A stretch of DNA of 50,354 nt from a virus. Below are positions 5,919-50,354 of the stretch, in pieces. The translations under genes were made by a program, and so were the position numbers. Numbering within the stretch: position 1 is the first letter of the stretch; every line of letters starts with the position of its first letter. The DNA is taken from the IMG/VR virus record IMGVR_UViG_3300020138_000002, positions 1 through 50,354 of that record, one strand, 5' to 3'. Under the pieces are notes generated by a model, which did not search any database, was not told the origin of the DNA, and saw nothing but the letters and a program-made list of their open reading frames with translations.

Positions 5919-7064
5919 TCATGGGATGGTCACCGGTTCACCGATCGGGGCGAACGTCGCCCGCACCGTCTCCCGACCGGGTGCCCCCGGGACGTGCTCG
6001 AATTCGACCTCGGTGAGCATCGTCGCCTGCCGGACCGGGACGGGGATGTTGTGGATCTCGATGTCGACGCGGGCCGAACCTGGCCGGAGGTCTCTCATCC
6101 CGATCGGCGCCGTCGGCAAAAGCCGCGCGGACGACGGAAGGTCGACACGCCACATCGGCCGAATACGGCCCTGGATCGCGCGGCGAGCCGCCGTCGCCCG
6201 CGACCGTGCCGACGTGCCCCGGGGGACGTCGACGCGCATCGCGGGCCACCCCCACGCTGAACCGAACTCTCCTGCGGTGGTGACGACGGGGGACCCGTCG
6301 GCGTCTTCGCCGACCGCGACGCCCATGATGCCCATGTCGAGCGCGGATTGCGTGATCTGCACGTCGCCCTCGAAATGCGCGGTGGTGAGTGTCGCGATCG
6401 GTGACCTGGCTATGGTCGCCGGTGACGACAGGATGATCCGGCGGCCGACGGCGGCGTACAGCAACCCGAAGTTATCGGCGAGGTCGTCGAGCGTGTCGCC
6501 GACGTAGTCCGCTGTCACTCCGGGCGCGTAGTCGATCGTCTCCCCGACCGGGTTGGTGTACAGGTAGTCGCGGATCAGGTAGATGTCCTCGGGAACCGAT
6601 AGGCCCATCATCTGCGTGATCACGTCGTACGCGATATCGACCGGGTCGGTGTCCTCATAGGTCATGTCGACCAGGTTGACGAGTCTCCCGGCGTCCTCGT
6701 GGAACACGGACGCCATGTCGCCTCCGCTGATGACGGCGCCGGACCGTCCCGTCGACTGGGTGATGTCGTAAATCGGCCCCGAGTAGGCGATGTCACGTCC
6801 CCGGAGGATTCTGACCTCCCACCATCCCGGCTGGATACGTCGCAGGACGTCCTGACAGAACGCGCCCCCGCCGAGCTGGACTTCGAACGGAGCCCACGAG
6901 TTATAGGTCCGCCCCCACGTGATCTTCTCGACGCCCTTGAGCCGGAAGTACCCGTCGAGTCGGGGCGGCTCGATCGGTGTCCCGGGTGCGGAGTACCGGT
7001 CGAGACGGCGAACCTCAACGATCGTGTCGTCACCGGCCGCCGGGCACCCCAGATAGTCCGCCAT
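5919..7064 (-). CDS. minor tail protein (baseplate hub / Tal-like position), 381 aa
   Basis: Start trimmed to ATG 7064 (MADYLGCPAAG), 1 nt after the stop codon of the upstream gene. It is the second gene after the tape measure. Confidence 0.55.
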   Translation of the reverse strand: MADYLGCPAAGDDTIVEVRRLDRYSAPGTPIEPPRLDGYFRLKGVEKITWGRTYNSWAPFEVQLGGGAFCQDVLRRIQPGWWEVRILRGRDIAYSGPIYDITQSTGRSGAVISGGDMASVFHEDAGRLVNLVDMTYEDTDPVDIAYDVITQMMGLSVPEDIYLIRDYLYTNPVGETIDYAPGVTADYVGDTLDDLADNFGLLYAAVGRRIILSSPATIARSPIATLTTAHFEGDVQITQSALDMGIMGVAVGEDADGSPVVTTAGEFGSAWGWPAMRVDVPRGTSARSRATAARRAIQGRIRPMWRVDLPSSARLLPTAPIGMRDLRPGSARVDIEIHNIPVPVRQATMLTEVEFEHVPGAPGRETVRATFAPIGEPVTIP

Positions 7065-7065
7065 G

Positions 7066-8325
7066 TCAGCCGCCGTTCGTCCGGGTCCAGAACTCGACGA
7101 TGACTTCGGCGCCTGCCGCAACGCCGACCGCCGTGTAGATCTCTATGCACAGTCCGGGGCCGCACTGGATTGCTTCGACGTACCCGGCGCCCGCGCCGTC
7201 GATGGGCGGACCGTACACGCTGGCCGGGGTATCAACGTTCCGGCCACGCGAGTTGACGCAGGTCATCGTGTTGAGTCCGGTTCTGCCGTCCATGATCAGT
7301 GACCCGTTGGCGGGGATCTCGGCGACGGTGAGGTCCGTGCAGGCGCGGCACGGGTTCAGGTCCGGGAGACGACCACACGGAATCCCCAGTGGATTAGCGT
7401 AGAAGCGGACCACGAGGTTACGGACCGCCAGATTCCCCGCTCGGACACGCACCACCGGGACCACGTCGAGCTGACGAGCAAGCACACCCGGCGGGATCGA
7501 GATCAGTGTCCGGTGAGCGGCGAACGGCTCGGCCGGGTAGCACTCCGGCAACGGCTCGGCCGGAAGCGGCGCGAACCCCTCCGGGACGGGGCACGCAAAC
7601 TGACCAGCGCATTCGTCGTCATCAGGGCACGCTTCATACACGGCCGGAAGGTCCAGCGTGACCTGTTGTCCGTCTGAAGGCCGCACCGAGATCACACGAT
7701 CAGGCGGCGGCGGACGCCACACGTACACGTTCGGCGTCGATAGGGTGACCTCGAACTCGACCCATAGCGGATCCTCCCAATCGCGGTCCATCATCGTCGG
7801 CCCCGACACGACCTCGACCTCGTACAAGTACCGAAGCGGGTCCGGTCCGACGAGCTCCCCGTCATCGTCGACGTCCGGGCAGCACGCGAGCACGCACATC
7901 TCGTGCCCCACACATCCCGTCGCGCACGGAGACGACTCGAACGCGTTCGCCAACCATCCTTGCGCGTACTCCAGACCGCATTCATCCGCGAGAATCGCCG
8001 CGAACCGGATCGTGAACTGTCGGCGTGCCGGCGCCGACGATGTCGCTGTTGTCGCCGACCGGACCGCCTCGGTCATACCGGTGATCTCCAGCCCGGCGAA
8101 CCCGAGCACCATCGCCGACTCCGGTACCGCCGGGTCATACCAGGGCGCGTCAACAGTGATCCCCTCGTAGGGTTCGCCGCTGTTCAGCCACTCTCCGGCG
8201 TCCTCTTCACAGTCCCAACATGTCCCTATCGCAGCACCGCACTCGTCGATTTGCGCACCGTACGCGGATGCGCGGGCTGTCGAGATGACCTCTAGGCCGC
8301 CGATCACCACATAGTCGGGCAGCAT
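7066..8325 (-). CDS. minor tail protein (distal tail protein position), Cys-rich, 419 aa
   Basis: First ORF downstream of the tape measure. Its N-terminus MLPDYVVIGGLEVISTARASAY resembles actinophage Dit-position proteins, from memory. Confidence 0.55.
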   Translation of the reverse strand: MLPDYVVIGGLEVISTARASAYGAQIDECGAAIGTCWDCEEDAGEWLNSGEPYEGITVDAPWYDPAVPESAMVLGFAGLEITGMTEAVRSATTATSSAPARRQFTIRFAAILADECGLEYAQGWLANAFESSPCATGCVGHEMCVLACCPDVDDDGELVGPDPLRYLYEVEVVSGPTMMDRDWEDPLWVEFEVTLSTPNVYVWRPPPPDRVISVRPSDGQQVTLDLPAVYEACPDDDECAGQFACPVPEGFAPLPAEPLPECYPAEPFAAHRTLISIPPGVLARQLDVVPVVRVRAGNLAVRNLVVRFYANPLGIPCGRLPDLNPCRACTDLTVAEIPANGSLIMDGRTGLNTMTCVNSRGRNVDTPASVYGPPIDGAGAGYVEAIQCGPGLCIEIYTAVGVAAGAEVIVEFWTRTNGG

Positions 8326-8348
8326 CTCGTCTCACCTCCCCTCACCTG

Positions 8349-10697
8349 TCACTTGTATTTCGCGATCGTGTCTTCGATTGTTCTGCGAAGCCGTTCCGGG
8401 TCGCCGCCGTCGATATTGATCGTGATGTCGATCTTGCGGTTGTCGTCGCTGCTGCCTGTTTGGGGACCGGCGGCGAGGATCTGCGTCAGTCCGGATTCCT
8501 GCGCGAGCTGTCGGGCACGGTCGGGCCGGGTCAACGGGATGACCACCTCTTTACCGGCTTCGCCGATCATCGCGTAGGTGGTGCTGGTGACGATGCCACC
8601 GTTCGCAAATCCGATCCACGACCCGGCTTCGTCCAGGGCGTTACCGATCGCATCGCCGATGTTTCCAGCGAGGTCACCGATCGCGTCCATGATCTGACCA
8701 GGAAGATCCTTAAACCACTGGACGACATCGCCGAGCCAATCCTTCAGACGATCGAACACGTCCTTAATGTCCTCGATCTTGTCGACGATCCAGTCGATCG
8801 CGCTGCCGAACTCTCCGGTGATGGCGGTGGCGACGTCACTGATCACGCTGATGACGGGGCTGACGACCGACACGATCCCCGACACGATGCCGATAAACGA
8901 CTGAATAACACCGACGACGATCTTGAACCCCTCGATCAGGAGACTGAGGCCGCCGCTGATCACGTCGGCGATCACCGGCAGCAAGTCCTCAAAGATCGGG
9001 ATGAGTGTGTCGGCTACCTGATCGATCAGCTCCAACAGCGGGGGTAGGAGCTGCTCGGTGATCATGTCGCCCATCTCGGTCAGCACCGGGATGAGCGATT
9101 CGGCGAGAGTCTCGTAAAACGTCGCGAAAATCGGGGTGAGACGTTCAATGATCCCGGCGAGCGTGCCGAAGATCGGGGTGAGAATCGAAACGAAGATATC
9201 GGCGAGCGTCTCGATCACCGGCAGCATCGGTTCGAGCACGCTTGTCAAGAGACCAGTGAATGCGGCGATCACCGGGGCGACAGCTTGCGCGATCCCGCCG
9301 ATCAGGTTGCCGACGATGCCGACGAGCTCACCCAGCACCGGAAGAACTGGTGCGACGGCGTCGAGGATGCTTCCGATCGCGCCCGCGATCGATTGGAGCG
9401 CACCGGAATCAGCGATCGCCGCGATCGCGCCGCCGAGCGCGTCGACGACGGTCTCGATCGCGGGCGCGAGTGTCGTTACGACGTCGGCGATGACCGACCC
9501 GAGTGGTGTCAATGCGGTGGCGACGGAGGCCAGAAGCGGGCCGATCGCAGACCCGATCGCCGCCAACGCCTCAAACAGTCCACTAAGGAATTCTTGGCCT
9601 TCGGTCGATTCGAGGAACCGGTCGACCTCACCGAAGACCTTCTCAAGCGTGTCAAGCAGCCCACCGCCCTCAGCGGACGCGGCGCCGAACACGGTCCCGA
9701 AAATCGACCCGACCGCCCCGATAATGCGACCGAGCTGCGAAAACAGTTCAAGCGCGCCCCGAACCCACTCGACAGCCTCACCAGACTCGGCCGCCTCGTC
9801 GAGAAATGCCGCGAAGTCATCGATGACGCCACCGAGTCCGTCGCCGAAATCGAACGCCTCACCGACGACCGTTCCGATATTGAGCAGCGCGTCGAAGAGC
9901 CGCGCGGTCGGCTCAGTAATATCCTCAATGATGTCCTTAAGCGACGCAAACGCGGTGTCGACGAACCCGACAGCGTTATCGCTGGAAGCAACGTCGGCGA
10001 GCGCGTCCACGAGACCGGACGCAGCAGACGCAGCCCCAGTCATTCCCTCCCGGACAGGCCCGATCAACGCAGACGCGACACTGTCCAGATTGTCGGCGAA
10101 CCCGGAGAAGAACTCCTCCTGAACCGCCTCACGCAACGACTGGAACTCCGGCGACAGTCCACGCAACGCCCGAGCCGCCTCCTGCGCGGACGGCGCCAAC
10201 CCATCCAGACTCTCCTCGAACTCGTCGGCGTCACCGGTGACGGCGGCCTCGAACGCGTCACCCACACCCGCCAAAGCCACCCGGAATGTGGACATTCCCG
10301 CGGCTGCGACACCCGCCACCGCAGGTAGAGCCGCGAGCGCACCGACAGCCGGAGCCAACGCCGTCACCAGCCCGGCCGCCGCCGCCGCCAACCCACCGAT
10401 CGCGCCCGCCATCGCCGTGATGCGGCCCGCGCTCCCCAACGCTCCACCGATGTTCGGGATGCGGAGGTTGCTGAGTCCGCGCCGGAACCCGTCGGAGTAG
10501 GCGTCGCCTGCGTCGCGACCGGCGCGAGCGAACCGTCCTCGTGCGTCCCGGAGTCGCCCGTTGGCGTCGCGGAATAGTCCCGGTTCGATTTCGACGGTGA
10601 TCTTCTCATCACGGTGTCGATTAAGGATTCGTTGTAGTGACGGCCCGAATGTCGAACCGTCCGCGACGACATCTGCGGCTACCTCACCAACAGGCAC
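8349..10697 (-). CDS. tape measure protein (782 aa)
   Basis: Longest tail-block ORF. It has long Ala/Gly/Ile/Leu-rich helical repeats and the C-terminal motif GFANGGIVTSTTYAMIGEAGKEVVIPL, typical of actinophage tape measures. GTG start at 10697 after a G-rich RBS. Two chaperone genes precede it. Confidence 0.9.
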   Translation of the reverse strand: MPVGEVAADVVADGSTFGPSLQRILNRHRDEKITVEIEPGLFRDANGRLRDARGRFARAGRDAGDAYSDGFRRGLSNLRIPNIGGALGSAGRITAMAGAIGGLAAAAAGLVTALAPAVGALAALPAVAGVAAAGMSTFRVALAGVGDAFEAAVTGDADEFEESLDGLAPSAQEAARALRGLSPEFQSLREAVQEEFFSGFADNLDSVASALIGPVREGMTGAASAASGLVDALADVASSDNAVGFVDTAFASLKDIIEDITEPTARLFDALLNIGTVVGEAFDFGDGLGGVIDDFAAFLDEAAESGEAVEWVRGALELFSQLGRIIGAVGSIFGTVFGAASAEGGGLLDTLEKVFGEVDRFLESTEGQEFLSGLFEALAAIGSAIGPLLASVATALTPLGSVIADVVTTLAPAIETVVDALGGAIAAIADSGALQSIAGAIGSILDAVAPVLPVLGELVGIVGNLIGGIAQAVAPVIAAFTGLLTSVLEPMLPVIETLADIFVSILTPIFGTLAGIIERLTPIFATFYETLAESLIPVLTEMGDMITEQLLPPLLELIDQVADTLIPIFEDLLPVIADVISGGLSLLIEGFKIVVGVIQSFIGIVSGIVSVVSPVISVISDVATAITGEFGSAIDWIVDKIEDIKDVFDRLKDWLGDVVQWFKDLPGQIMDAIGDLAGNIGDAIGNALDEAGSWIGFANGGIVTSTTYAMIGEAGKEVVIPLTRPDRARQLAQESGLTQILAAGPQTGSSDDNRKIDITINIDGGDPERLRRTIEDTIAKYK

Positions 10698-12441: not shown

Positions 12442-12953
12442 CAGGTCGGCCGCCGGAATCGGACCGTCGTGATCCCGCCGACGGCCATGGACTGCGGTCC
12501 GTACGGACGCCACGCCGTGACTGTCATCCGGGGGCGTCGGATCGATGCCGCCGCCGCCGCGACTGCCTGACGGTCCCACTCGACCTGAAGCGTTTCGGCG
12601 GCGATGACCTCCGGGTCAGGTAGTGACACGTCATCGGGTCCGGTGACGGTGTGGCACCGTAGGACCCCGATTTCGACGTCCACCCACAGGAGCGGTGTGC
12701 ATGGTGTCGTCGTGGTCGCGGTTTCTTGGACGGTTCGGATCCACACGCGGCCTTGCGAGTCGGGTCCGCGTAGGTCTGCGCCGCGTTGCGTCGGTGACTG
12801 GGCGACGATCACGTCGTACCGGCACGCCGCCGCACCCCGGCATTCCATCTCGGTTTCGATGGCGGCGGCGAGACGCTGCATGACCTGGTAGGTGACGCCG
12901 ACCCGTTGCATCGATGTCACCACTTCGGTGCCGTTGTCGGCGGTGAATGTCAT
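12441..12953 (-). CDS. head-tail connector protein (170 aa)
   Basis: Start trimmed to ATG 12953 with RBS GGAGG, 8 nt upstream. It forms an ATGA overlap with the amidase stop codon. The Cys/Trp pattern (CRYDVIVAQ...LLWVDVEIGVLRCH...WRPYGPQSMAVGG) resembles connector proteins of actinophages. Confidence 0.5.
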   Translation of the reverse strand: MTFTADNGTEVVTSMQRVGVTYQVMQRLAAAIETEMECRGAAACRYDVIVAQSPTQRGADLRGPDSQGRVWIRTVQETATTTTPCTPLLWVDVEIGVLRCHTVTGPDDVSLPDPEVIAAETLQVEWDRQAVAAAAASIRRPRMTVTAWRPYGPQSMAVGGITTVRFRRPT

Positions 12954-14590
12954 CCGGACAACCTCCATCCGGGCTGGTACAGGGTGTCGTACCACGGGCG
13001 AAGCCGCTCAAACGTGCGCGCGGCGGCGAGAACGCGCTCGTCGGACAGGCGTGGTCCGACGATCTGCATTCCGATGGGGAGACCGTCATAGCACCCGGCC
13101 GGGATACTGACGGCCGGTTCACCCGTGAAATTCTGCAAGCAGGTGCAGCACCAGCCGATGTTCGGGTCGACCGCGACGCCGCCGACGGTGGACGGGCCGA
13201 CGGTGGACCCGTCACCGGCGTTGATCAACTGCTGTGGGAGTGCGGCGAGTGTCGGGCCGATGATCAGGTCATACCCGTTCGGATCACCGTTGACGCGCCA
13301 CGCCGCATCGAACGCCGACCTGATCGCCTGGGTGTCGGACTCGATGTCGCGGATCCTGGTCGCGGGAAGTGATTGCCCGAGCTGGACAAGCTCGTACCAT
13401 TCCGGCGTGAGTTTCTCTGGCGCTGCGAGGACATCGATGCCGAAACCGGCGAAATAGTTGACGACACCACCCGCATAGAGTGTCCCCATTGATTCGTTCC
13501 ACCACGTCGACACATCACCCTGGGTGAGCGGTTCGCCGGTGGTGTGAATGATCGCCTCGTCGAGACCGAGGTGGACCCCGGTCTCGACGACTGCTCCGGC
13601 CTGCTCGAACACGCACCCGACCTGGTTGATCACGTCGCGGATCGGCTGTTCGACGGGGTAAATGTCCCACGTGTCGGTGATCCCGATGCGAAGGCCTCGG
13701 ACGCCGCGCTCTAGTTGCGCCTCGAAGTTGTACCCGGTCGACGACGACGGGACACCCGAGAAATTGGGCTTCGTGACGCTGAACGGGTCGGGTGGGTACG
13801 GCTGGACCATGAGGTCGGCCATGACCGCGACACCGTACACAGTCCGATCCATCGGTCCTGAGTGGAGGAACGGGTTGACGGGGAACGGCGGCACACCCTG
13901 CGGAATCAGACCAGCAGTCGCCTTGAAACCGACGATTCCGGTCGGCGCGGCGGGGATACGGATCGAACCGCCCGCGTCGGATCCCTCCGCCGACGCGACC
14001 ATGAACGACGCGAGCGCGGCGGACGCGCCACCCGACGAACCGCCAGGATTCAGACCGAGCCGGAGCGGGTTCTGCGTGTCACCCCACGCCGGTGACGCTG
14101 TGATTCCCTTGTGCCCGAACTCTGGGGTGGCGGTTTTACCCAGGCTGATCGCGCCCGCGTCGAGCAAACGCATCACGTAGATCGCGGTGTACGGCGGCAG
14201 GAACGGGTAGTACGTCGGAGGTGGATTCGTGGCGCTCTCGGGCGCGAACATGGCGCTGCCGAACGTGTTCGGAACGTTCATCTCCCAATCGAAAAGATCC
14301 TTCGTCGCGATCGGGAGACCTTCGAGCTTGCGGGCGGTCCCGTTGTCGTACCGCTCATCGGCTAGTACGGCCGCCGCCCGAGCCTCATCGAACTGGGTGT
14401 GAACGAACGCGTTGACAAGCGGATTCAGCCTCTCGATCCGGCCAATGTACGCCTCTAGGGCGTCGACGACGCGGATCTGACGCGTCCTGAAATACGAGAG
14501 AAGGCGCTGCATCGGGAGGTACGCAATGTCTTCGCCGGTTGGCGGGTTAGGTGCACACGCATTCCACGAAGGTCCACATTGAAAAGTCAT
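12950..14590 (-). CDS. amidase-signature (AS) family amidase, GatA-like fold (546 aa)
   Basis: Complete AS signature GGSSGGASAALASFMVASAEGSDAGGSIRIPAAPTGIVGFKATAGLIP, plus the upstream catalytic-Lys context LPIATKDLF. These are the Ser-cisSer-Lys triad positions. Translationally coupled to both neighbours. Confidence 0.85.
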   Translation of the reverse strand: MTFQCGPSWNACAPNPPTGEDIAYLPMQRLLSYFRTRQIRVVDALEAYIGRIERLNPLVNAFVHTQFDEARAAAVLADERYDNGTARKLEGLPIATKDLFDWEMNVPNTFGSAMFAPESATNPPPTYYPFLPPYTAIYVMRLLDAGAISLGKTATPEFGHKGITASPAWGDTQNPLRLGLNPGGSSGGASAALASFMVASAEGSDAGGSIRIPAAPTGIVGFKATAGLIPQGVPPFPVNPFLHSGPMDRTVYGVAVMADLMVQPYPPDPFSVTKPNFSGVPSSSTGYNFEAQLERGVRGLRIGITDTWDIYPVEQPIRDVINQVGCVFEQAGAVVETGVHLGLDEAIIHTTGEPLTQGDVSTWWNESMGTLYAGGVVNYFAGFGIDVLAAPEKLTPEWYELVQLGQSLPATRIRDIESDTQAIRSAFDAAWRVNGDPNGYDLIIGPTLAALPQQLINAGDGSTVGPSTVGGVAVDPNIGWCCTCLQNFTGEPAVSIPAGCYDGLPIGMQIVGPRLSDERVLAAARTFERLRPWYDTLYQPGWRLSG

Positions 14591-41045: not shown

Positions 41046-41071
41046 TGTTCGGTGGTTTCTGACCTCCCCCC

Positions 41072-41101
41072 TTGCGTTTCCATAATTCGTCATGGTATGG
41101 T
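41072..41101 (+). promoter_or_regulatory. conserved early promoter copy: -35 TTGCGT, 18 nt, extended -10 TGGTATGGT
   Basis: ccccTTGCGTttccataattcgtcaTGGTATGGTgta. Nearly identical over about 40 nt to the copies at 48163 and 50176. Confidence 0.75.
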
Positions 41102-41131
41102 GTACCTAGTTCGTTCTTAGGAGAACCACAC

Positions 41132-42023: not shown

Positions 42024-42048
42024 TTATCCGAACGTTGAGGAGAACCAC

Positions 42049-42643: not shown

Positions 42644-44143
42644 ATGACCGCCATCGACCTGAACAACGCGATCGCGTGGGCCACTGACAACGTGGTCCTC
42701 GCGATCGCCACCATTATCTCCGCGCTATTCGCGGCCTTCCTGTCCTGGCTGATCATCGCCAGGCTCGTCCGACGCGCCGTCGGCGCCGCGAAGGTCACCG
42801 GACGCGCCGCCGCCCGACTTGATCTCGCCGCCGTCGGCGCCGCAGGAGTTGGACTTCTCGCCAGCCTCGCCTCACTAGAGGCGATGTGGGAGTTCCTGCG
42901 CCACGACCTCGGCATCACTGATACGTTTGTTCGGGCCGTCATCGTTGTCTTGTTCGATCTCGCCGCTGTCGTCGCCGCGCTACTGTCCCGCGAGGCACGC
43001 GTCCGAGCGCCCGGTCACCTCGGCGTAGACACGCTCCTGGTGTGGGCGATCGCGGGCCTTCTCGGCTATTTCGCCGCGTCTCATGCCGAGACCCCAGAAG
43101 GCTCCGTGTTTCGCGCCGCGGTCCCGGTATTGGCCGGGATCATGTGGGACCGCGTCATCGCCCGTGACGTCGCCCGTTCCGCCACCCTCGACAAGGCCCG
43201 CCTATCCACCATCACCGGACGAATCGTCGCCGGAATCCTCCGCGCCGTGTCTGCCGTGTGGCGATCGATCATGCGGACACTCGCTCGCCTCGGACTCGTC
43301 CAACCGGACCAGGACATCGCCGAGATTCAGCACGCACGGTGGCAGCGTCGGTTCATCAAGGTCGCGTCGATGGCGAAGTCTGCAGAGGGACGATACGAAC
43401 GGTTGGCTGCTGAGACCCCGCGAGACGAGAAGGAGCTCAAGCGAGCGACCGGACAACGTGACCGACTCTATGAGCGGTTCGACCGAACTGTCGCTGACGG
43501 TCTTCGTATCGGCGCCGTGACGACCCCAGAGGACCTCGAATCAGCCCTGTGGAAGGCCCGCGTGGCACTGAACGCGCGCGACATCCTCGATCAGGCTGGT
43601 TCGGATTCTCCGTGGCGTATCGCTGGCCGTTCGGTCGACCGGCCGATCGATGCGGAGGTGATCGATGGAGAAGTCATCGTCCGACCGGACCCGACCGACC
43701 GACCAGTCGACCGATCGGTCACCACCGTGACCGACCGACCGAACGAACCCGAACCGACCGGGACCGACCGACCAGACGACCGGCCGGACGACCGACCGAC
43801 CGACGACACCCCGATCGAACCGACCGACATCATCAACCGGCCGAACCGACCGACCGGTCGCGACCTCGACCGACCGACCGACCGAGCGGACGTGAACATC
43901 CACATCACCGTCACGACCGACCGCGAGACACAATTCATTCGGACCCTCGCCGAACTCGTCCTCGAGCAAGGCGTCACCGAGCTCCCATCCCAAGCGCGAC
44001 TCGCCACAGCCGCCGAGCTTTCGAAGAGCACCGTCGGCGACATCATCCGCCGGTGGGGAATCCCCAAACAGATCACCGACGAGGTCGCCGCCGCCATCGA
44101 AACCGTCGCCAACGCCATCAACCGCGAAAACGCCACCAGGTAG
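42644..44143 (+). CDS. polytopic membrane protein (DUF2637/Spd-like N-terminus), DRP-rich linker, C-terminal HTH (499 aa)
   Basis: 4-5 predicted TM helices in residues 1-190 (VVLAIATIISALFAAFLSWLIIA; LAAVGAAGVGLLASLASL; VIVVLFDLAAVVAALL; LLVWAIAGLLGYFAA; AAVPVLAGIMW). Then a charged coiled region. Then PDPTDRPVDRS...TDRPDDRPDDRPTDD repeats. Then the C-terminal QARLATAAELSKSTVGDIIRRWGI. Confidence 0.6.
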   Translation: MTAIDLNNAIAWATDNVVLAIATIISALFAAFLSWLIIARLVRRAVGAAKVTGRAAARLDLAAVGAAGVGLLASLASLEAMWEFLRHDLGITDTFVRAVIVVLFDLAAVVAALLSREARVRAPGHLGVDTLLVWAIAGLLGYFAASHAETPEGSVFRAAVPVLAGIMWDRVIARDVARSATLDKARLSTITGRIVAGILRAVSAVWRSIMRTLARLGLVQPDQDIAEIQHARWQRRFIKVASMAKSAEGRYERLAAETPRDEKELKRATGQRDRLYERFDRTVADGLRIGAVTTPEDLESALWKARVALNARDILDQAGSDSPWRIAGRSVDRPIDAEVIDGEVIVRPDPTDRPVDRSVTTVTDRPNEPEPTGTDRPDDRPDDRPTDDTPIEPTDIINRPNRPTGRDLDRPTDRADVNIHITVTTDRETQFIRTLAELVLEQGVTELPSQARLATAAELSKSTVGDIIRRWGIPKQITDEVAAAIETVANAINRENATR

Positions 44144-44237
44144 ACGCATCTAGACGCGTCTCACCTAGACGCCTCTACCCAAACATCACCCATAACCAGC
44201 AGAAACACCACGAACCCAGAACAGGAGACTCTAGACG
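44141..44237 (+). promoter_or_regulatory. TAGACG iterons in the intergenic region upstream of the FtsK-like operon
   Basis: TAGACG occurs at 44141, 44151, 44166 and 44232. The copy at 44151 is part of the 12-bp palindrome tagacgcgtcta, and the last copy abuts GTG 44237. Confidence 0.45.
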
Positions 44238-44533
44238 TGTCTACCTCACCATTGAGCATCAGCAACGCTGAGAGCTACTGGGACCAGCTCGGCGACACGA
44301 TGCACCGCATCCTCCGCAGCACCCAGGACGGCACGATCCTCCCCGACAGCATCGACGGTCAAACCGACGAATGCGGAGCGCTCGTCGAAGAGATCCAGGA
44401 CAACCTCAGGGCGCTGATGATCGCGTCGCGGGCGCTGGCCGGGATCTACCGCAAAGCCCGCTTGAAAGCTCCCGGTGATCTCGCGGATGCGCAGGTCAAA
44501 CCCCGCGAACACGTGCATGGGGCTTTGCGGTGA
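44237..44533 (+). CDS. hypothetical protein (98 aa)
   Basis: GTG start after CAGGAGACTCTAGAC. GTGA overlap with the next gene. Confidence 0.5.
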   Translation: MSTSPLSISNAESYWDQLGDTMHRILRSTQDGTILPDSIDGQTDECGALVEEIQDNLRALMIASRALAGIYRKARLKAPGDLADAQVKPREHVHGALR

Positions 44534-45534
44534 GTGCCGAAGGCGCCAGGTACTACCTGGCTCAGGCGGGCATGGCCGCGGCGACCGGGTGGACCGGTGT
44601 CGCCTCGGCTGTCGGCGTCGTCCCGGCGGCGATCGGGGCGGCGGCGGCGGGTGCGGCGGCCGGGGCGGTTGCGTTGGAACGGCGCCGCCGGACCGCGAAG
44701 TCGGGCCGGTCATCGTCCGGTCGGTCGATCGGGTCTCGGTCGGGACGACCGGGGGCCGGTCGGATCGGTCGGGCGCTGAACCGGTTGCGTGGCCGACCGG
44801 CCGGGACGGGTAAGGCAGCGTCCGGCCGACCGGCCGGTCGGAAACGACCGACCGGGACCGGTCGACCGACCGGACGGAACCGGTCACGAATGGTCGACCG
44901 GAAACGACCGACCGGAACCGGTCGACCGGGCGCCGGGAAAAGACCGACCGGAACCGGCCGGAAACCTCCCGGTCGACCGGGAGGAACCGGCCGACCGACC
45001 GCGACGAAAAAACCGACCGGGACCGGAGCCAAGAAGACCCCGAAAAAACCGACCGGGACCGGATCGAAACCGGCCACCGACCGGTCAATCAAGACCACAA
45101 CCAACACCAAAACGGAGAAAAGGGAGAAAACCATGAGCCAGGAACAGACCCGCAAATCCATCGGAAGCTACGACCCTCAGACGAGGATGATGACTCAGGT
45201 GATCGAGGACCTTAGCGCCTCCCTCAACACCGTCGACTGGAGAGGAGAGCAGGCTGGTCTGATCTACGGCATGTCTGTCCTCCAGGACCTGCAAGGAGCG
45301 CTTGAGGAGTACAGCAAGATCATTCGGTCGGTCGCCTCCGGTTTTGACCGTCCCGGTCTCGATCCGCGAATCACACAGGGACTGTCCGATTTGGCGTCGA
45401 ACGAAGCGGTAGCCGCGAACGACGTCGCCACCCTGATCACGGCGATCCAAATGTTCCATGCGGCCGACCTCGAACGCATGGAATCGGATGCCACGAACGC
45501 GCTCGACCGTCAAACCAACATGGACAGCATGTAG
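44530..45534 (+). CDS. membrane-anchored, extremely basic P(T/A/G)GTG-repeat protein with a globular C-terminal domain (334 aa)
   Basis: N-terminal hydrophobic span (AAATGWTGVASAVGVVPAAIGAAAAGAAAGAVAL), then seven (K/R)(K/R)P(T/A/G)GTG units, then a helical domain of about 130 aa. An in-frame internal ATG at 45133 has its own GGGAGAAAACC context. Confidence 0.55.
   Translation: MSAEGARYYLAQAGMAAATGWTGVASAVGVVPAAIGAAAAGAAAGAVALERRRRTAKSGRSSSGRSIGSRSGRPGAGRIGRALNRLRGRPAGTGKAASGRPAGRKRPTGTGRPTGRNRSRMVDRKRPTGTGRPGAGKRPTGTGRKPPGRPGGTGRPTATKKPTGTGAKKTPKKPTGTGSKPATDRSIKTTTNTKTEKREKTMSQEQTRKSIGSYDPQTRMMTQVIEDLSASLNTVDWRGEQAGLIYGMSVLQDLQGALEEYSKIIRSVASGFDRPGLDPRITQGLSDLASNEAVAANDVATLITAIQMFHAADLERMESDATNALDRQTNMDSM
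44790..45075. repeat. degenerate tandem DNA repeats ACCGACCGG(G/A)ACCGG with embedded perfect palindromes
   Basis: aaacgaccgaccggGaccggtcgacc (from 44842) and aaacgaccgaccggAaccggtcgacc (from 44902), a 60-bp period. Further copies at about 44942, 45012 and 45049. A 20-bp perfect palindrome cctcccggtcgaccgggagg lies at 44965-44984. Confidence 0.85.
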
Positions 45535-45543
45535 CCACTCGAC

Positions 45544-45569
45544 GGGGCGCACCGGGATCGGTGCGCCCC
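45544..45569 (+). terminator. hairpin between the repeat-protein gene and the FtsK-like gene
   Basis: ggggcgcaccg (45544-54) pairs with cggtgcgcccc (45559-69), loop ggat, no T tract. It may be an attenuator or processing site rather than a full stop. Confidence 0.4.
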
Positions 45570-45591
45570 CCAACACCGGAAGGCATCCGAC

Positions 45592-47970
45592 ATGACCGAC
45601 ACCACCACTGACGGCACGACGCCCGGCACGGATAAACCCGTCACCATCAACCTGCCGAAACCCGACCGCCAACCCACCCGGTCCGCCGCCCGTGAACGTC
45701 TCCGCGACATCGACCCGCCACGAGAGTGGATACGCCACCCCATCACCGCCGCCAACGCGCTCCTGCTGACCGCCGCCGTCATGTACCTGATCCGTCCCGA
45801 CGGGTTCTCTCTCCCGGAGTCACCCGGTACCGGTATCGCCGTCATCCTGAGCATCGTCATTGGGATCGTCCTCGCGTCGGGCCTCTCGTTCGGGGTCGGT
45901 CTCGCCCGAACTGATGACCCCGTCCGAGCATGGTCGCTAGGCGCCTCCGTGTTCGCGGCCGCCGCGTGGCTCGTCATCACCGTCATGACCGGCGGCGTGT
46001 GGACCATCGTGGGGATAGCGACGTTCTCCGCGATCCTCGCGGTCACGATGATGATCTACGCGGCCGTATCAGTCCGGACCCGACGTGAAGCGCTCCGAGC
46101 GAGCGCCGAACGGTCAGTTGAACGCGCCGAGCGTCGCCGCCACGAATGGGACGCGATCCTGGAGCGCGCCAAGGTCAAAGGAGTGAAGGTCGTCGGAGAA
46201 TCGCGGCTGGACAACGGCGGCGGACGGATCTACGAGCTCGACATCGAGGACGGGTCTTCGGGTATCGCCGGCCTGAACTCTGCGCTCGACCGGATCGCCT
46301 CCGCGGCGTCCCGTGTCGTGTCCTACCCGATCACGCCACGGTCTCTGACCGTACGCCCGCATTCCAGCGGAAAACTGCACCTGTGCGAACTCGTCGTCCT
46401 CGAACGCGACGTCCTCGCCGAGAACATCGCTCTCCCGGCTGACCTGTACTCCACACGCGGGACCGTCCTCGATGACTACGAGGTCGGCCGTGACGTGACC
46501 TCGGCTCCGGTCCTGATCGACCGCAGGCAGGGGCACGAATTTATTGCCGGTATGACCGACGGCGGTAAATCCACAGCGATGGAGGTCCGCATGATCCAGG
46601 ACATTCTCCGGCCGGACACGGTCGTGTGGGTGATCGCACCGGACAAGGGCGCTCGACTGGTCGGTCCCTACCTCCTCCCGTACCTGACCGGAGAGAATCG
46701 GACCGCTCGACCAGCGATCGACTGGATCGCCCTCGACGAGGCTGAGGCGGCGATGATGCTGGCGGACACTCTGCGCGCGATCAACCAGCGGCAGCGACGA
46801 CTCGGCGCCGACGGGCAGGGGTGGAAGCCAACGCCGTCCGACCCCGCAATCTCTATCTACATTGACGAGTCGGTCGGGATGTTGAACTCTCGGCAGTCGT
46901 ACCCCGACCACACGGGTCGGATGCGCACACCTGGTCAGCTCGTGACGGACGTGACCCGGCTAGCACGGTCCGAATGGATCACGGTCACGCTGGCGAGCCA
47001 GCGTGTCACCGCGACGATGACCGGTCCTGACGCGTCCAACATCAAATCGCAGATGCGGATCCGGACGGCGTTCGGGGCCGCTAAAGGAAACGAGGGGTTT
47101 GAGGCCGCGGGACTATTCGGGGCGGACTCTGGACGGCTTCGTCTGGCGGGACTGCCGCCGGGCGCGTACGCGATCACCGATGAACGGCACCGCCGCGTCC
47201 CGGAGGTCATCAAAGGCTACAACGTGTCCCCGGAGATCAGGACCGGAGCCGTACGCAACGCGGATCGTCTCGAGACGCACGCGATCCTCGATGAGTACAC
47301 GGCAGGTGCCCTGAAGACCTATGCTGGCCGGTGGACACGCGATAGCCAAGTGCAGCAGGTCCGAGACATCATCACCGGGTCCGGGCGTGATGTCGACGAC
47401 GACGTTCTCGACGAACTCGCGTTGACCGACCCAACGAACGTCGGGAAAAGGACGTCCCGGATCGATCCTCCCCGAGACGAGCACGGCAACCCGACGCGTC
47501 GTCGTGATGCCGCTGAATCATTGGCCGAGGAGATCAAACGTATCCAGTCCGCTGAGAGGTCGTCGCGGGTCGCAGCGGCCGCCGACGGGGCCGTCCCGGA
47601 CGACGACGAGTTGCAGGTGTGGTTCGCCATGGACGCCAACAACGAAGACGCCGACGACGACGTTCTTCCGCCGGTGTCTCCCGAAGCGCTGGATGTCGCC
47701 GCCGCGATCCGATCGAGTGGCATCCTCGATACCGGAGACGAGTGGGTCCCGTTCCGGCGCGTCGTTGAGGCCGTTTGTGACGAGATGGGATGGGCGGCGT
47801 TGAACGATAATGGCCGTCCGAACAAGGCGACGGACGGCCGAGTGTCTCGAGCGATCAGTGAGCTGGACCCGGAGATCGAGACGCGGCAAAAGTTCGCATC
47901 CCGCGTCGCTGCCTATGAGGTTGCTCGGTTGGCGGCTGCGGTCAATGCGCGACGAGAGGACACCGAGTGA
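45592..47970 (+). CDS. membrane-anchored FtsK/SpoIIIE-family (TraB-like) DNA translocase (792 aa)
   Basis: About four N-terminal TM helices (residues 55-165). Walker A GHEFIAGMTDGGKSTAM, Walker B PAISIYIDESVGML. A winged-helix-like C-terminal region (WVPFRRVVEAVCDEMGW...RVSRAISEL). Confidence 0.8.
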   Translation: MTDTTTDGTTPGTDKPVTINLPKPDRQPTRSAARERLRDIDPPREWIRHPITAANALLLTAAVMYLIRPDGFSLPESPGTGIAVILSIVIGIVLASGLSFGVGLARTDDPVRAWSLGASVFAAAAWLVITVMTGGVWTIVGIATFSAILAVTMMIYAAVSVRTRREALRASAERSVERAERRRHEWDAILERAKVKGVKVVGESRLDNGGGRIYELDIEDGSSGIAGLNSALDRIASAASRVVSYPITPRSLTVRPHSSGKLHLCELVVLERDVLAENIALPADLYSTRGTVLDDYEVGRDVTSAPVLIDRRQGHEFIAGMTDGGKSTAMEVRMIQDILRPDTVVWVIAPDKGARLVGPYLLPYLTGENRTARPAIDWIALDEAEAAMMLADTLRAINQRQRRLGADGQGWKPTPSDPAISIYIDESVGMLNSRQSYPDHTGRMRTPGQLVTDVTRLARSEWITVTLASQRVTATMTGPDASNIKSQMRIRTAFGAAKGNEGFEAAGLFGADSGRLRLAGLPPGAYAITDERHRRVPEVIKGYNVSPEIRTGAVRNADRLETHAILDEYTAGALKTYAGRWTRDSQVQQVRDIITGSGRDVDDDVLDELALTDPTNVGKRTSRIDPPRDEHGNPTRRRDAAESLAEEIKRIQSAERSSRVAAAADGAVPDDDELQVWFAMDANNEDADDDVLPPVSPEALDVAAAIRSSGILDTGDEWVPFRRVVEAVCDEMGWAALNDNGRPNKATDGRVSRAISELDPEIETRQKFASRVAAYEVARLAAAVNARREDTE

Positions 47971-48113
47971 TGATGGACGACATGGACAAGTCGATGAAAC
48001 GAGTTGACGTGGGATCTCATCTGGAAGCGGAGATGGAGCGTTACCAGTGTGAGGAGGCCGATCGAGAAGCTCGGGTCAGCGCCCTGTATGCGTCGATTCG
48101 GCGTTGGCGGTAG
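47970..48113 (+). CDS. possible micro-protein (47 aa)
   Basis: ATG 47970 overlaps the FtsK-like TGA (TGATG). Product MMDDMDKSMKRVDVGSHLEAEMERYQCEEADREARVSALYASIRRWR. It ends 14 nt before the terminator. Confidence 0.35.
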   Translation: MMDDMDKSMKRVDVGSHLEAEMERYQCEEADREARVSALYASIRRWR

Positions 48114-48126
48114 TTGGCCATAGGGG

Positions 48127-48155
48127 AGGCCACCCGGTTTCGGGTGGCCTTTTCC
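48127..48155 (+). terminator. rho-independent terminator ending the FtsK-like operon
   Basis: aggccacccg (48127-36) pairs with cgggtggcct (48141-50), loop gttt, followed by tttcc. Confidence 0.75.
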
Positions 48156-48162
48156 GCGCCCC

Positions 48163-48192
48163 TTGCGTTTCCCTAATTCATCATGGTATGGT
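48163..48192 (+). promoter_or_regulatory. conserved early promoter copy: TTGCGT, 18 nt, TGGTATGGT
   Basis: ccccTTGCGTttccctaattcatcaTGGTATGGTgta. Confidence 0.75.
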
Positions 48193-48237
48193 GTATGTGA
48201 TCGAAACGTTCGACCGCACAGAACACAGGAGAACCAC

Positions 48238-48372
48238 ATGGCCAACGTCGTACTCATCTGCTACGTCTGCCCCAACGAATCGACCTACCCGAAGCGGTCG
48301 ACCGTCCGCCGTGACGCCGCCAGCGACGGGTGGACGTTCGACGGACTCTGGTACTGCCCCGACCACAGCTGA
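48238..48372 (+). CDS. small Cys-motif (zinc-ribbon-like) protein (44 aa)
   Basis: Trimmed to ATG 48238, preceded by CAGGAGAACCAC. Product MANVVLICYVCPNESTYPKRSTVRRDAASDGWTFDGLWYCPDHS. Confidence 0.6.
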   Translation: MANVVLICYVCPNESTYPKRSTVRRDAASDGWTFDGLWYCPDHS

Positions 48373-48444
48373 CAATTGACCGTTCCCGTGGCCACCGGAC
48401 ACGATCCGGTGGCCACGCGGGACCAGCCAAGACAGGAGAACCAC

Positions 48445-49251
48445 ATGAACAACAGCACCGACTACCAGCTGCTCCTCCTCGACGACCACTTCCCTGTCGG
48501 CGAATACCAGGATGACGACGCAAACGAGTGGGTACTCGAGCACAAAGGCGAGTTCGTCGCCAACGTCGACGGCCACGATCACGCGACCCGTGTTCTCGCC
48601 GAACGTCTCGGTGTCGACGCCAGCCGGATCGAGCTCGTGCAGATCGACTTGTCCGAGTACCGTCAGGACGCGCCCGAATACGCGGTCGACGCGATAAACG
48701 TCGTCGTCCACCCGACGTCCGATTGGACGCCGACGATGCACGGCCCCGGCGCGTACGACACCGACGACTCTCGACCGTCCTGGATCGGAACCGCCAACGG
48801 ATGGGTGTGGGAGTGCGGACACCCGGGATGCGGACAGCAGGTGATGCTCGGTCACGTCGGTCACGAGCGCCTCGTCTGCGTGAAGAAGAGCGACATCACT
48901 CACGACGACACGATCGATCGCCTGTGGGGCGACGAATGGTCCGTAAGCAAGGACGGTCTCCGCTGCTACGACCACTCGCCCGAGACGCCCGAAGATAAGC
49001 CGGTACCCAGGCTCAACAAGCGTCTTGTCGTCGCGGCCGGAATCAAGGCGCCCATCCCCGCGATCGTTTGTTCCGGGTGCGGGACTGTGCACATGGTGAT
49101 GGATCCGGATGACGGGTACACGCACCCGTCGTGGATTGCCAATGCCGAGTCGATCACCGTCGATGACCTCGAGGACTGCGGTATCGGGTACGACGACGAC
49201 TGGATCGTAACCCCGGACGGTCCGGTGTGTGAGGACTGTCAGGTCCGCTAG
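48445..49251 (+). CDS. hypothetical Cys-rich protein (268 aa)
   Basis: Trimmed to ATG 48445, preceded by CAGGAGAACCAC. It carries several CxxC-type pairs (CGHPGCG, CSGCG, CEDC). Confidence 0.6.
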   Translation: MNNSTDYQLLLLDDHFPVGEYQDDDANEWVLEHKGEFVANVDGHDHATRVLAERLGVDASRIELVQIDLSEYRQDAPEYAVDAINVVVHPTSDWTPTMHGPGAYDTDDSRPSWIGTANGWVWECGHPGCGQQVMLGHVGHERLVCVKKSDITHDDTIDRLWGDEWSVSKDGLRCYDHSPETPEDKPVPRLNKRLVVAAGIKAPIPAIVCSGCGTVHMVMDPDDGYTHPSWIANAESITVDDLEDCGIGYDDDWIVTPDGPVCEDCQVR

Positions 49252-50028: not shown

Positions 50029-50175
50029 TTGGTTGCTCCCCCATCGGTGCGGGTTACCAGGGTATCGGGGGTTTTGGCGTTACGGTGTGCCTGGAAGTTT
50101 TTGTGTCTTCCGCGCCGGCGCCCTCCTTCGCTTCCCCAGAGATGTTGAGGGCGCCTTTTTTTGCGCCCTACCCCC

Positions 50176-50205
50176 TTGCGTTCCCTTAATTAGTCATGGT
50201 ATGTT
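50176..50205 (+). promoter_or_regulatory. conserved early promoter copy: TTGCGT, 18 nt, TGGTATGTT, driving gene 8..334
   Basis: cccccTTGCGTtcccttaattagtcaTGGTATGTTgtacttacatcgttcctaGGGAGAACCACATG. Confidence 0.75.
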
Positions 50206-50354
50206 GTACTTACATCGTTCCTAGGGAGAACCACATGGACACCACCTACACCGACATCAACACCGCCTTCCTCCACTCGGACATCGAGGTCCTCCTCGAA
50301 AACACCCGCTTCGACGTCGCCACCATCGTCGACGCGATCATGAACGACTACGAC

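Follow-up and report, generated by a model that had tools for sequence, protein, structure and literature searches.

A membrane-anchored FtsK/TraB-type ATPase and its partner genes in a siphophage genome: a predicted relative of actinomycete plasmid DNA-transfer blocks

The window examined in this study is the whole 50,354-nt stretch of IMG/VR virus record IMGVR_UViG_3300020138_000002, and the element of interest is a block of plus-strand genes at positions 42644 to 48113. An initial annotation had proposed that this block is a module of the kind that moves double-stranded DNA (dsDNA) between cells of actinomycetes, embedded in the genome of a tailed phage. The four open reading frames (ORFs) on which that proposal was built lie on the plus strand where they had been placed, and we add a fifth. 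Gene 1 (42644..44143) encodes a 499-aa polytopic membrane protein, gene 2 (44237..44533) begins with GTG and encodes a 98-aa acidic soluble protein, gene 3 (44530..45534) encodes a 334-aa very basic protein with a transmembrane (TM) anchor, gene 4 (45592..47970) encodes a 792-aa protein predicted to be a membrane-anchored dsDNA translocase of the FtsK/TraB type, and gene 5 (47970..48113), whose start overlaps the stop of gene 4, is a 47-aa acidic ORF. The window itself is a complete siphophage genome of ~50.2 kb. Its first 127 nt recur exactly at its end (1-127 = 50228-50354), which indicates a circular assembly of a genome of ~50,227 bp, and the same genome was obtained from several other metagenomes in near-identical assemblies of 50,257-50,368 bp.

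The AlphaFold 2 (AF2) model of the gene 4 product, built on an alignment of its family (pLDDT 82), has four TM helices at residues 45-66, 78-96, 110-133 and 139-~163, followed by a short helical neck, a motor region at ~185-600, a disordered linker and a C-terminal domain of helices and strands (697-791, nt 47680-47964) with winged-helix topology. Winged helix-turn-helix (wHTH) families of Pfam are matched at the C-terminus of its homologues as well. The Walker A motif GMTDGGKST occupies residues 320-328 (nt 46549-46575) and the Walker B motif IYIDES residues 422-427 (nt 46855-46872); the four helices, the two motifs and the winged-helix-like end that had been described for this protein are thus all present in the model and at the motif positions. 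The order of a TM anchor, an FtsK-like motor and a C-terminal wHTH is that of TraB. An exhaustive phmmer search at E ≤ 1e-3 collected 272 homologues, and a sample of 60 of these served for all family tallies and for residue conservation: no variation was seen at G325 and K326, E426 is kept in at least 90% of the sequences, and R459 and Q470 are invariant or nearly so across the family.

The relationship of gene 4 to known proteins emerged from family-level comparisons. The single sequence matched no Pfam family at E ≤ 1, and hence fell short of the PF01580 threshold, and it gave weak FtsK/SpoIIIE matches in PHROGs. The 792-aa sequence also found nothing when used alone in a phmmer search of the PDB, for which the family profile was required. 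That profile matched FtsK motors best (E 9e-22), then EccC and the pCW3 coupling protein TcpA, and its alignment to 2iuu extended over the alpha as well as the beta region. Foldseek searches with the model ranked the FtsK motor first, then TcpA and then EccC, with ~420 columns aligned to FtsK motor structures at a TMt of 0.62-0.67, an E value of 2e-13 and an identity of 16-18%. The best-scoring named family was NCBIfam plasmid_TraB, which matched residues 111-497, that is the TM region and the motor, at superfamily distance (E 8e-11, 41.1 bits). In the family sample plasmid_TraB was matched by 39 of the 60 members, EccCa by 32 and Pfam FtsK_SpoIIIE (PF01580) by 21 at E ≤ 1e-3. When scored with the family profile, pIJ101 Tra (KilA) reached 94 bits (E 1.4e-29), pCQ4 TraB 159 bits, and the proteins of the Streptomyces atratus, S. 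albidoflavus and Frankia pFQ12 plasmids 364-431 bits over their full length. A rough neighbour-joining tree, calculated without support values and with E. coli FtsK as outgroup, placed gene 4 in a clade of phage-borne proteins. Tra proteins of plasmids and phage-plasmids interleave with this clade, and pIJ101 Tra branches off outside. The FtsK/TraB-like character assigned to the protein earlier agrees with the presence of the alpha and beta fold in both the structural and the profile comparisons and with the tree and profiles, in which it does not group with non-translocase ATPases. The gene 4 product is therefore best described as a predicted membrane-anchored translocase of the FtsK/SpoIIIE family with an intact catalytic site. 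It is homologous to Tra proteins encoded by Streptomyces and Frankia plasmids and by phage-plasmids of the pCQ4 type, and its nearest named relatives are the Tra/TraB proteins of actinomycete plasmids.

The protein encoded by gene 1 has 4-5 hydrophobic helices in residues 3-179 according to hydropathy and the AF2 model. The model (pLDDT 62) divides it into a helical TM bundle at ~3-179, a confident coiled coil at ~225-320, a disordered TDRP-rich linker at ~321-420 and a helix-turn-helix (HTH) at ~426-498; matches of the LacI/HTH_3 type to this C-terminal HTH were found in 6 of 12 family members. The initial annotation had called this protein DUF2637-like, and while its polytopic nature and its C-terminal HTH were borne out, its membership in that family by sequence was not. 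Not one of the 12 family members matched PF10935 (DUF2637), even at E ≤ 1; BLASTP of gene 1 against DUF2637 gave an E value of 0.16; and hhalign of the gene 1 family against an alignment of 20 DUF2637 sequences from Streptomyces phage-plasmids returned a probability of 0.2% (E 0.3). The positive control, the DUF2637 protein of the S. atratus element (L015), was recovered at E 2e-32. A fold search of BFVD with the gene 1 model, whose pLDDT is 62, listed two DUF2637 phage proteins at ranks 7 and 28 with a TMt of 0.46-0.53 and phiC31 gp25 at rank 31, all of them below threshold (E 0.36-0.96). BLASTP, the Pfam scans of each member and hhalign together rule out DUF2637 by sequence, and the Foldseek result is suggestive. 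Gene 1 does correspond in place and general architecture to the DUF2637 protein that the S. atratus phage-plasmid encodes, and it is a positional and architectural analogue of DUF2637. With about four TM helices and a gene located beside the ATPase gene, it agrees with spread proteins of the DUF2637/SpdB2 type in these two respects.

Ten homologues of gene 1 were found, several of them on contigs of phage size (47-53 kb). The family profile also matched the first gene of the corresponding block of the S. albidoflavus phage-plasmid (L016) at E 4e-13 with motifs in common across the TM core, and the two genes are homologous. Relatives of the TM core, 460-580 aa in length and scoring 65-87 bits with the family profile, were present at 19 genomic loci (L024-L042), most of which belong to the Micromonosporaceae (Actinoplanes, Micromonospora, Dactylosporangium and Catellatospora) and the others to further actinomycetes. 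The Micromonosporaceae are mycelial, and the occurrence of gene 1 relatives in them is a clue to the host as well as a caution. No recognisable phage gene lies within 10 kb of these homologues, and their neighbours, such as an IS21-type transposase and a secreted lipase/PKD protein, are uninformative. A DUF932-like gene is found ~8 kb away at several of the 19 loci.

Searches with genes 1-3 against Pfam, PHROGs, NCBIfam and PDB sequences returned nothing usable, and genes 2 and 3 have no recognisable relatives beyond the closer phages and no detected homology to their plasmid counterparts. Gene 2, which matched no family in Pfam, PHROGs or NCBIfam, is 77% identical to its counterpart in the relative L001, and its last 4 nt are shared with the beginning of gene 3; in L011-L013 its place is taken by a 150-aa membrane protein. 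The gene 3 product was described from the outset as a TM-anchored, extremely basic repeat protein, which agrees with a single TM segment at residues 21-49 and a pI of 11.35. It continues with a region of RPTGTG-type repeats at ~50-200 and a helical C-terminal domain. Gene 5 is also present in independent gene calls on identical contigs, and the relatives likewise have a small ORF of 44-80 aa after the ATPase gene.

Between genes 1 and 2, at 44141..44243, lie four 12-bp copies of TAGACGNNTCTA, at 44141, 44151, 44166 and 44232, the last of which overlaps the GTG start of gene 2. There are no other copies in the 50 kb, and none of 100 shuffles reached this count. These are the repeats that had been taken for iterons in front of the block. 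Their coordinates are as given there, yet they lie inside the block and not in front of it, and the iteron reading was dropped in favour of inverted-repeat, operator-like palindromes. The sites are kept in L001, and the distant relative L009 has three copies of another palindrome, GGACATGTCC, arranged in the same way and likewise covering the start codon, so that the layout has been conserved while the sequence has changed; a GntR regulator is encoded upstream in L009. No GntR-type TraR was found in the window. We predict from the sequence that 44141-44243 is an operator-like control region for genes 2-5. In the classical plasmids traB is under repressor control and its unregulated expression is toxic (PMC4447253), an arrangement which the palindrome layout recalls by analogy, and the GntR gene upstream of the block in L009 resembles the GntR-type regulation of plasmid traR/korA systems (PMC4447253). 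At the other end of the block, the clean terminator noted earlier corresponds to a plus-strand hairpin at 48123..48155 (dG -29.9 kcal/mol, z -3.0) followed by a T run, which is predicted to be an intrinsic terminator closing the transcription unit. Three copies of a conserved plus-strand element of ~45 bp, CCCCTTGCGTTTCCnTAATTCnTCATGGTATGGTGTA, are present in the genome (~41068-41105, 48159-48196 and 50172-50209), each directly after a terminator-like hairpin. Judged by its sequence it looks like a phage promoter, with a -35 element TTGCGT, an 18-nt spacer and TATGGT.

The linker of gene 1 and the repeats of gene 3 hold co-oriented 8-mers. The array at 43691..43923 on the plus strand contains ~13-14 co-oriented ACCGACCG/GACCGACC 8-mers, which amount to (ACCG)n runs, and a second plus-strand cluster lies at 44717-45084. 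The block accounts for 24 of the 29 copies of ACCGACCG in the genome and for 22 of the 25 on the plus strand, the oriented 8-mers being confined to ~1.4 kb, and five relatives show the same concentration of ACCGACCG in the module. In other lineages the top clustered co-oriented 8-mer is again found where the first membrane gene encodes its linker, and its sequence is specific to the lineage (ACCGACCG, CGGTCGAC, ACCGGGAC, GCCGAAGC and GAGACCAG); this pattern holds for the window, L001, L009, L011-L013, L015, L016 and L019, with Frankia pFQ12 (L017) and pCQ4 (L014) as exceptions. The clt sites of conjugative Streptomyces plasmids consist of direct 7-9-bp repeats in arrays, to which TraB binds with its C-terminal wHTH (PMC4447253, PMC3583192). 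Because plasmid clt sites are direct repeats of this length read by the winged helix of TraB, the 8-mer arrays are candidate loading sites. In all three frames (ACCG)n encodes TDRP. Of the 34 arginines in the DRP repeats, 29 are specified by the rare codon CGA, whose background share is 5-21%. By analogy the arrays are candidates for a cis site resembling clt or the TraB recognition sequence (TRS), or equally for a peptide linker generated by slippage.

The same order of genes, namely a polytopic membrane protein, a small protein, a middle protein, an FtsK-like ATPase and a small ORF, was found in at least seven phage-like contigs (L001, L009/L010, L011, L012, L013 and L019). The ATPases of these contigs are 72% (L001), 27% (L009/L010) and 16-20% (L011-L013) identical to that of the window. 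In the phage contigs the block lies next to terminase genes, with the GntR gene upstream and terminase downstream in L009/L010, and in several relatives it is just upstream of the terminase region. A polytopic membrane protein with a C-terminal HTH always accompanies the ATPase, and the small and the TM-anchored basic proteins usually do. Two more phage contigs carry family members in other arrangements, and in one of the two, L020, a DUF2637 gene adjoins the FtsK-like gene. In a plasmid collection gene 4 matched 16 actinomycete plasmids, of which we inspected pCQ4 (L014), S. atratus NZ_CP108279 (L015), S. albidoflavus NZ_CP109240 (L016) and Frankia pFQ12 (L017). The first three are Streptomyces phage-plasmids with terminase a few kb from tra, pCQ4 having a portal gene as well, and pFQ12 is an ordinary 22-kb Frankia plasmid. 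The four-gene order is present in three of the four (L015, L016 and L017), pCQ4 being the exception. The expectation that the genes would be co-conserved is thus supported by synteny, which extends over phages both close and distant, over Streptomyces phage-plasmids and to pFQ12, and the block is therefore a module that actinomycete plasmids, phage-plasmids and phages share and exchange. The pCQ4 and S. albidoflavus plasmids have identical backbone proteins (e.g. WP_015060978.1) and different tra blocks (304 aa, TraA and TraB in pCQ4; 513, 85, 669, 62 and 712 aa in S. albidoflavus), which points to module swapping. Among GenBank phages only Saccharomonospora phage PIS 136 matched the ATPase, and a DNA-level search of GenBank phages with the block gave no match, the lineage being absent from them at this level. 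A search of IMG/VR with the family alignment matched patterns and confirmed no relative, and a genome scan with the single 792-aa protein gave no match.

The surroundings of the block are those of a phage. The minus strand at 3.9-28.4 kb carries genes for the large terminase, portal, major capsid, major tail, tape-measure and minor tail proteins, the early arms encode ERF, a RecE-like exonuclease and a DNA methyltransferase, and a replication-initiator-like protein is encoded in the genome. The block belongs to the main rightward transcription unit, among genes on the replication and recombination side, and is not a moron-like island. The absence of integrase and partition genes claimed earlier agrees with our scan, which took in the four proteins of the block, all other ORFs of at least 280 aa and most of the shorter ones and found no integrase, ParA or ParB. 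The fixed place of the block in several phage genomes and the gene order in phage contigs and phage-plasmids show that it is not part of an inserted integrative and conjugative element (ICE), as had also been proposed. The GC content at third codon positions (GC3) of the four main genes is 0.74-0.80, and the ratios of nonsynonymous to synonymous substitution rates (dN/dS) against L001, whose ATPase is 72% identical, are 0.17 for the 792-aa, 0.18 for the 98-aa, 0.38 for the 334-aa and 0.58 for the 499-aa protein. Together these values indicate that the block ORFs are real genes, and the dN/dS values indicate purifying selection. A reading of the block as a decaying remnant is ruled out by these dN/dS values and by conservation in at least seven phage contigs.

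Several other features of the genome deserve mention. The gene for a 546-aa amidase-signature enzyme (12950-14590, minus strand; Pfam PF01425, E 8.8e-66) lies amid the tail genes, an unusual cargo for a structural region, and its PHROGs matches are confined to a family of unknown function. Just 3′ of the block, on the plus strand, are a 43-aa Cys-rich ORF (CxxC...CPDH, 48240-48372) and a gene for a 291-aa protein with several CxxC/HxxC motifs (48376-49251), neither of which matched a family. A ribosome-binding/start box, AGGAGAACCACATG, is conserved on the plus strand ahead of four small genes that flank the block, at 42038, 42279, 48227 and 48434.

Our results suggest that the block is a phage-borne version of the TraB/Spd-type dsDNA translocation apparatus of actinomycetes, whose motor loads on phage DNA and, together with its partners, moves that DNA across septa or envelopes; we give this interpretation a probability of about 0.5. 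Gene 4 would form a hexameric pore-motor in the cytoplasmic membrane, and its winged helix would load the motor on phage DNA, possibly at the GACCGACC 8-mer arrays in genes 1 and 3. The pump and its membrane partners could then drive the unprocessed dsDNA of the phage through septal cross-walls or into neighbouring cells, and the outcome would be a virion-independent spread of the phage, like the conjugal transfer of pZL12-type plasmid-phages. The palindromes would keep a potentially toxic pump repressed in the kil-kor style.

A number of observations weigh against this interpretation. Gene 4 is approximately equally distant from pIJ101 Tra and FtsK, and its score of 41.1 bits is below the equivalog cutoff of 800 for NCBIfam NF041214. 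No homology of genes 1-3 to SpdA, SpdB or KilB of pIJ101 or to DUF2637 was detected, and in L011-L013 genes 2 and 3 are swapped for unrelated proteins of similar style. No FtsK-like gene lies within 10 kb of the gene 1 homologues in Micromonosporaceae, and the host may not be mycelial. The 8-mer arrays are explicable as slippage-prone (ACCG)n that encodes a TDRP linker in three frames, and no plasmid genes for replication or partition were found by which transferred DNA could be maintained other than through replication of the phage.

An alternative which we regard as possible though rather unlikely is that the pump acts inside the host, like FtsK, SpoIIIE or SffA at host septa, without exporting DNA. 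It could clear or partition replicating or pseudolysogenic phage DNA into compartments or spores, or it could disturb chromosome segregation and septation of the host. The motor fold and the four-TM anchor are of the FtsK/SpoIIIE type, and FtsK scores near pIJ101 Tra; such a role would also suit a phage in whose scanned ORFs no partition genes of its own are present. Regulators of host development often accompany FtsK-like genes in actinophages (PMC13587820), and in both PIS 136 and L019 the FtsK-like gene has a gene for WhiB nearby. However, the closest relatives with a functional label are plasmid transfer proteins and not chromosomal FtsK, and the block is like tra/spd operons in its short linker between TM region and motor, its dedicated membrane partners and its tight operator control (PMC4447253).

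The bolder proposal, that the virus is an element with two routes, self-transmissible as naked dsDNA in addition to its spread as virions, with its clt (the GACCGACC/(ACCG)n arrays) placed inside the partner genes of the pump, strikes us as unlikely. If it held, the 8-mers peculiar to each lineage would match a lineage-specific recognition by the winged helix, by analogy with the TRS motifs of plasmids.

We think it distinctly unlikely that the block serves superinfection exclusion or defence, as a membrane complex that intercepts or expels incoming phage or plasmid DNA or as an entry exclusion system. It is the case that the block proteins are membrane-located and have DNA-binding domains, that ATPases of the HerA/FtsK family occur in defence systems, with low-ranking Foldseek matches to Sir2-HerA and similar systems, and that PHROGs classes phage FtsK-like proteins as 'moron, auxiliary metabolic gene and host takeover'. 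However, PADLOC yielded a negligible 19.7-bit match to mad8 and nothing else, and the location of the block in the main rightward unit, kept across diverged phages, is not that of a moron. A role in the infection cycle of the phage itself, in which the pump would pull in the genome after partial ejection or would resolve concatemers or move them to a packaging site at the membrane, could make use of a dsDNA pump with a sequence-reading domain, of co-oriented 8-mers with a polarity like that of FtsK-orienting polar sequences (KOPS) and of a location that in several relatives is just upstream of the terminase region, yet it is very improbable, as the 8-mers are restricted to their short interval and not spread over the genome as KOPS-like guides would be, as expression must precede any action on the entry of the phage's own genome, and as the literature searched holds no precedent.

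If the block does translocate phage DNA from one hyphal compartment or cell to another, the tailed phages that infect filamentous actinomycetes would gain a second route of spread that depends on neither receptor nor virion, which would bear on plaques, pseudolysogeny, host range and phage resistance in antibiotic-producing bacteria and would blur the boundary between phage, plasmid and actinomycete ICE (AICE). The block is conserved across many uncultured phages and, at 5.5 kb, is a compact set of genes together with candidate cis sites. We regard the present result as a gene of a known kind, annotated with good support in a phage lineage that is new, and not as a demonstrated new mechanism.

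The idea of transfer is also less new than the initial annotation implied, as published precedents exist (PMC4447253). FtsK-like genes are present in many actinophages (PMC4982277, PMC13587820), and FtsK-like or SpdB2/DUF2637-like genes are annotated in Gordonia phages Bowser and Schwabeltier, in Streptomyces phages Jaresh and AndoPrime, and in phiC31 (gp25) and VWB. A supporting part in the spread of phage DNA was proposed in 2015 for the SpdB2 homologues of phiC31 and VWB (PMC4447253). In SpdB2 an N-terminal coiled coil precedes the TM helices (PMC4447253), whereas in gene 1 the TM region comes first, followed by coiled coil, linker and HTH. In PIS 136, gp41 matches gene 4 over its full length (Foldseek E 6.5e-34; tblastn 29%), and the terminase of this phage is the closest to that of the window (37%). 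PIS 136 (L018) has two nearby FtsK-like proteins, encoded at 6170-8731 and 8844-9878, of which gp41 (853 aa) is the full-length match and gp39 (344 aa) matches the motor alone (TMt 0.85); whiB lies ~2 kb downstream of these genes.

The closest parallel to the window is offered by the Streptomyces phage-plasmids (pZL12, pCQ4, NZ_CP108279 and NZ_CP109240), in which structural genes of a phage likewise stand together with a gene for a membrane FtsK-like Tra protein. Transfer of pZL12 requires the main tra gene together with two genes next to it (cited in PMC3583192). The tra order in these elements is like that of the window, with a ~500-aa polytopic protein that has an HTH-like end, a small protein, a middle protein and a 680-800-aa ATPase, upstream of terminase, and a GntR regulator is located upstream as in the relative L009. 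Their ATPases are homologous to the family of the window (159-431 bits; identity ~26%), whereas their middle proteins are unrelated to gene 3, and the first gene of the S. atratus element is a true DUF2637, which gene 1 is not. The phage-plasmids are also larger, at 85-99 kb, and carry ParA/ParB and plasmid replication genes, none of which was detected in the scanned ORFs of the 50-kb window. Of the two features by which a phage-plasmid is recognised, a structural module and ParA/ParB, the window therefore has the first, and the second was not found in the scanned ORFs.

TraB of pSVH1 and Tra/KilA of pIJ101 are, like gene 4, single membrane FtsK-like ATPases with a C-terminal domain that reads DNA, and classical Streptomyces conjugation resembles the window in its operon of small membrane proteins, its repressor control and its short direct repeats near or in tra (PMC4447253, PMC3583192). 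The classical tra genes are located on a plasmid or AICE, whereas the block described here is carried by a 50-kb tailed phage. With FtsK and SpoIIIE, gene 4 shares four N-terminal TM helices, a RecA-type motor of alpha and beta parts and a winged helix at the position of FtsK-gamma; FtsK has a long Pro/Gln linker between TM region and motor, in contrast to gene 4, which is without it, is encoded by a phage and comes with dedicated partners. The precedents are the pZL12/pCQ4 plasmid-phages, the SpdB2 homologues of phiC31 and VWB and the FtsK-like genes of actinophages, and what is new here is the lineage, the conserved set of partners together with the operator layout, and the intragenic 8-mer arrays.

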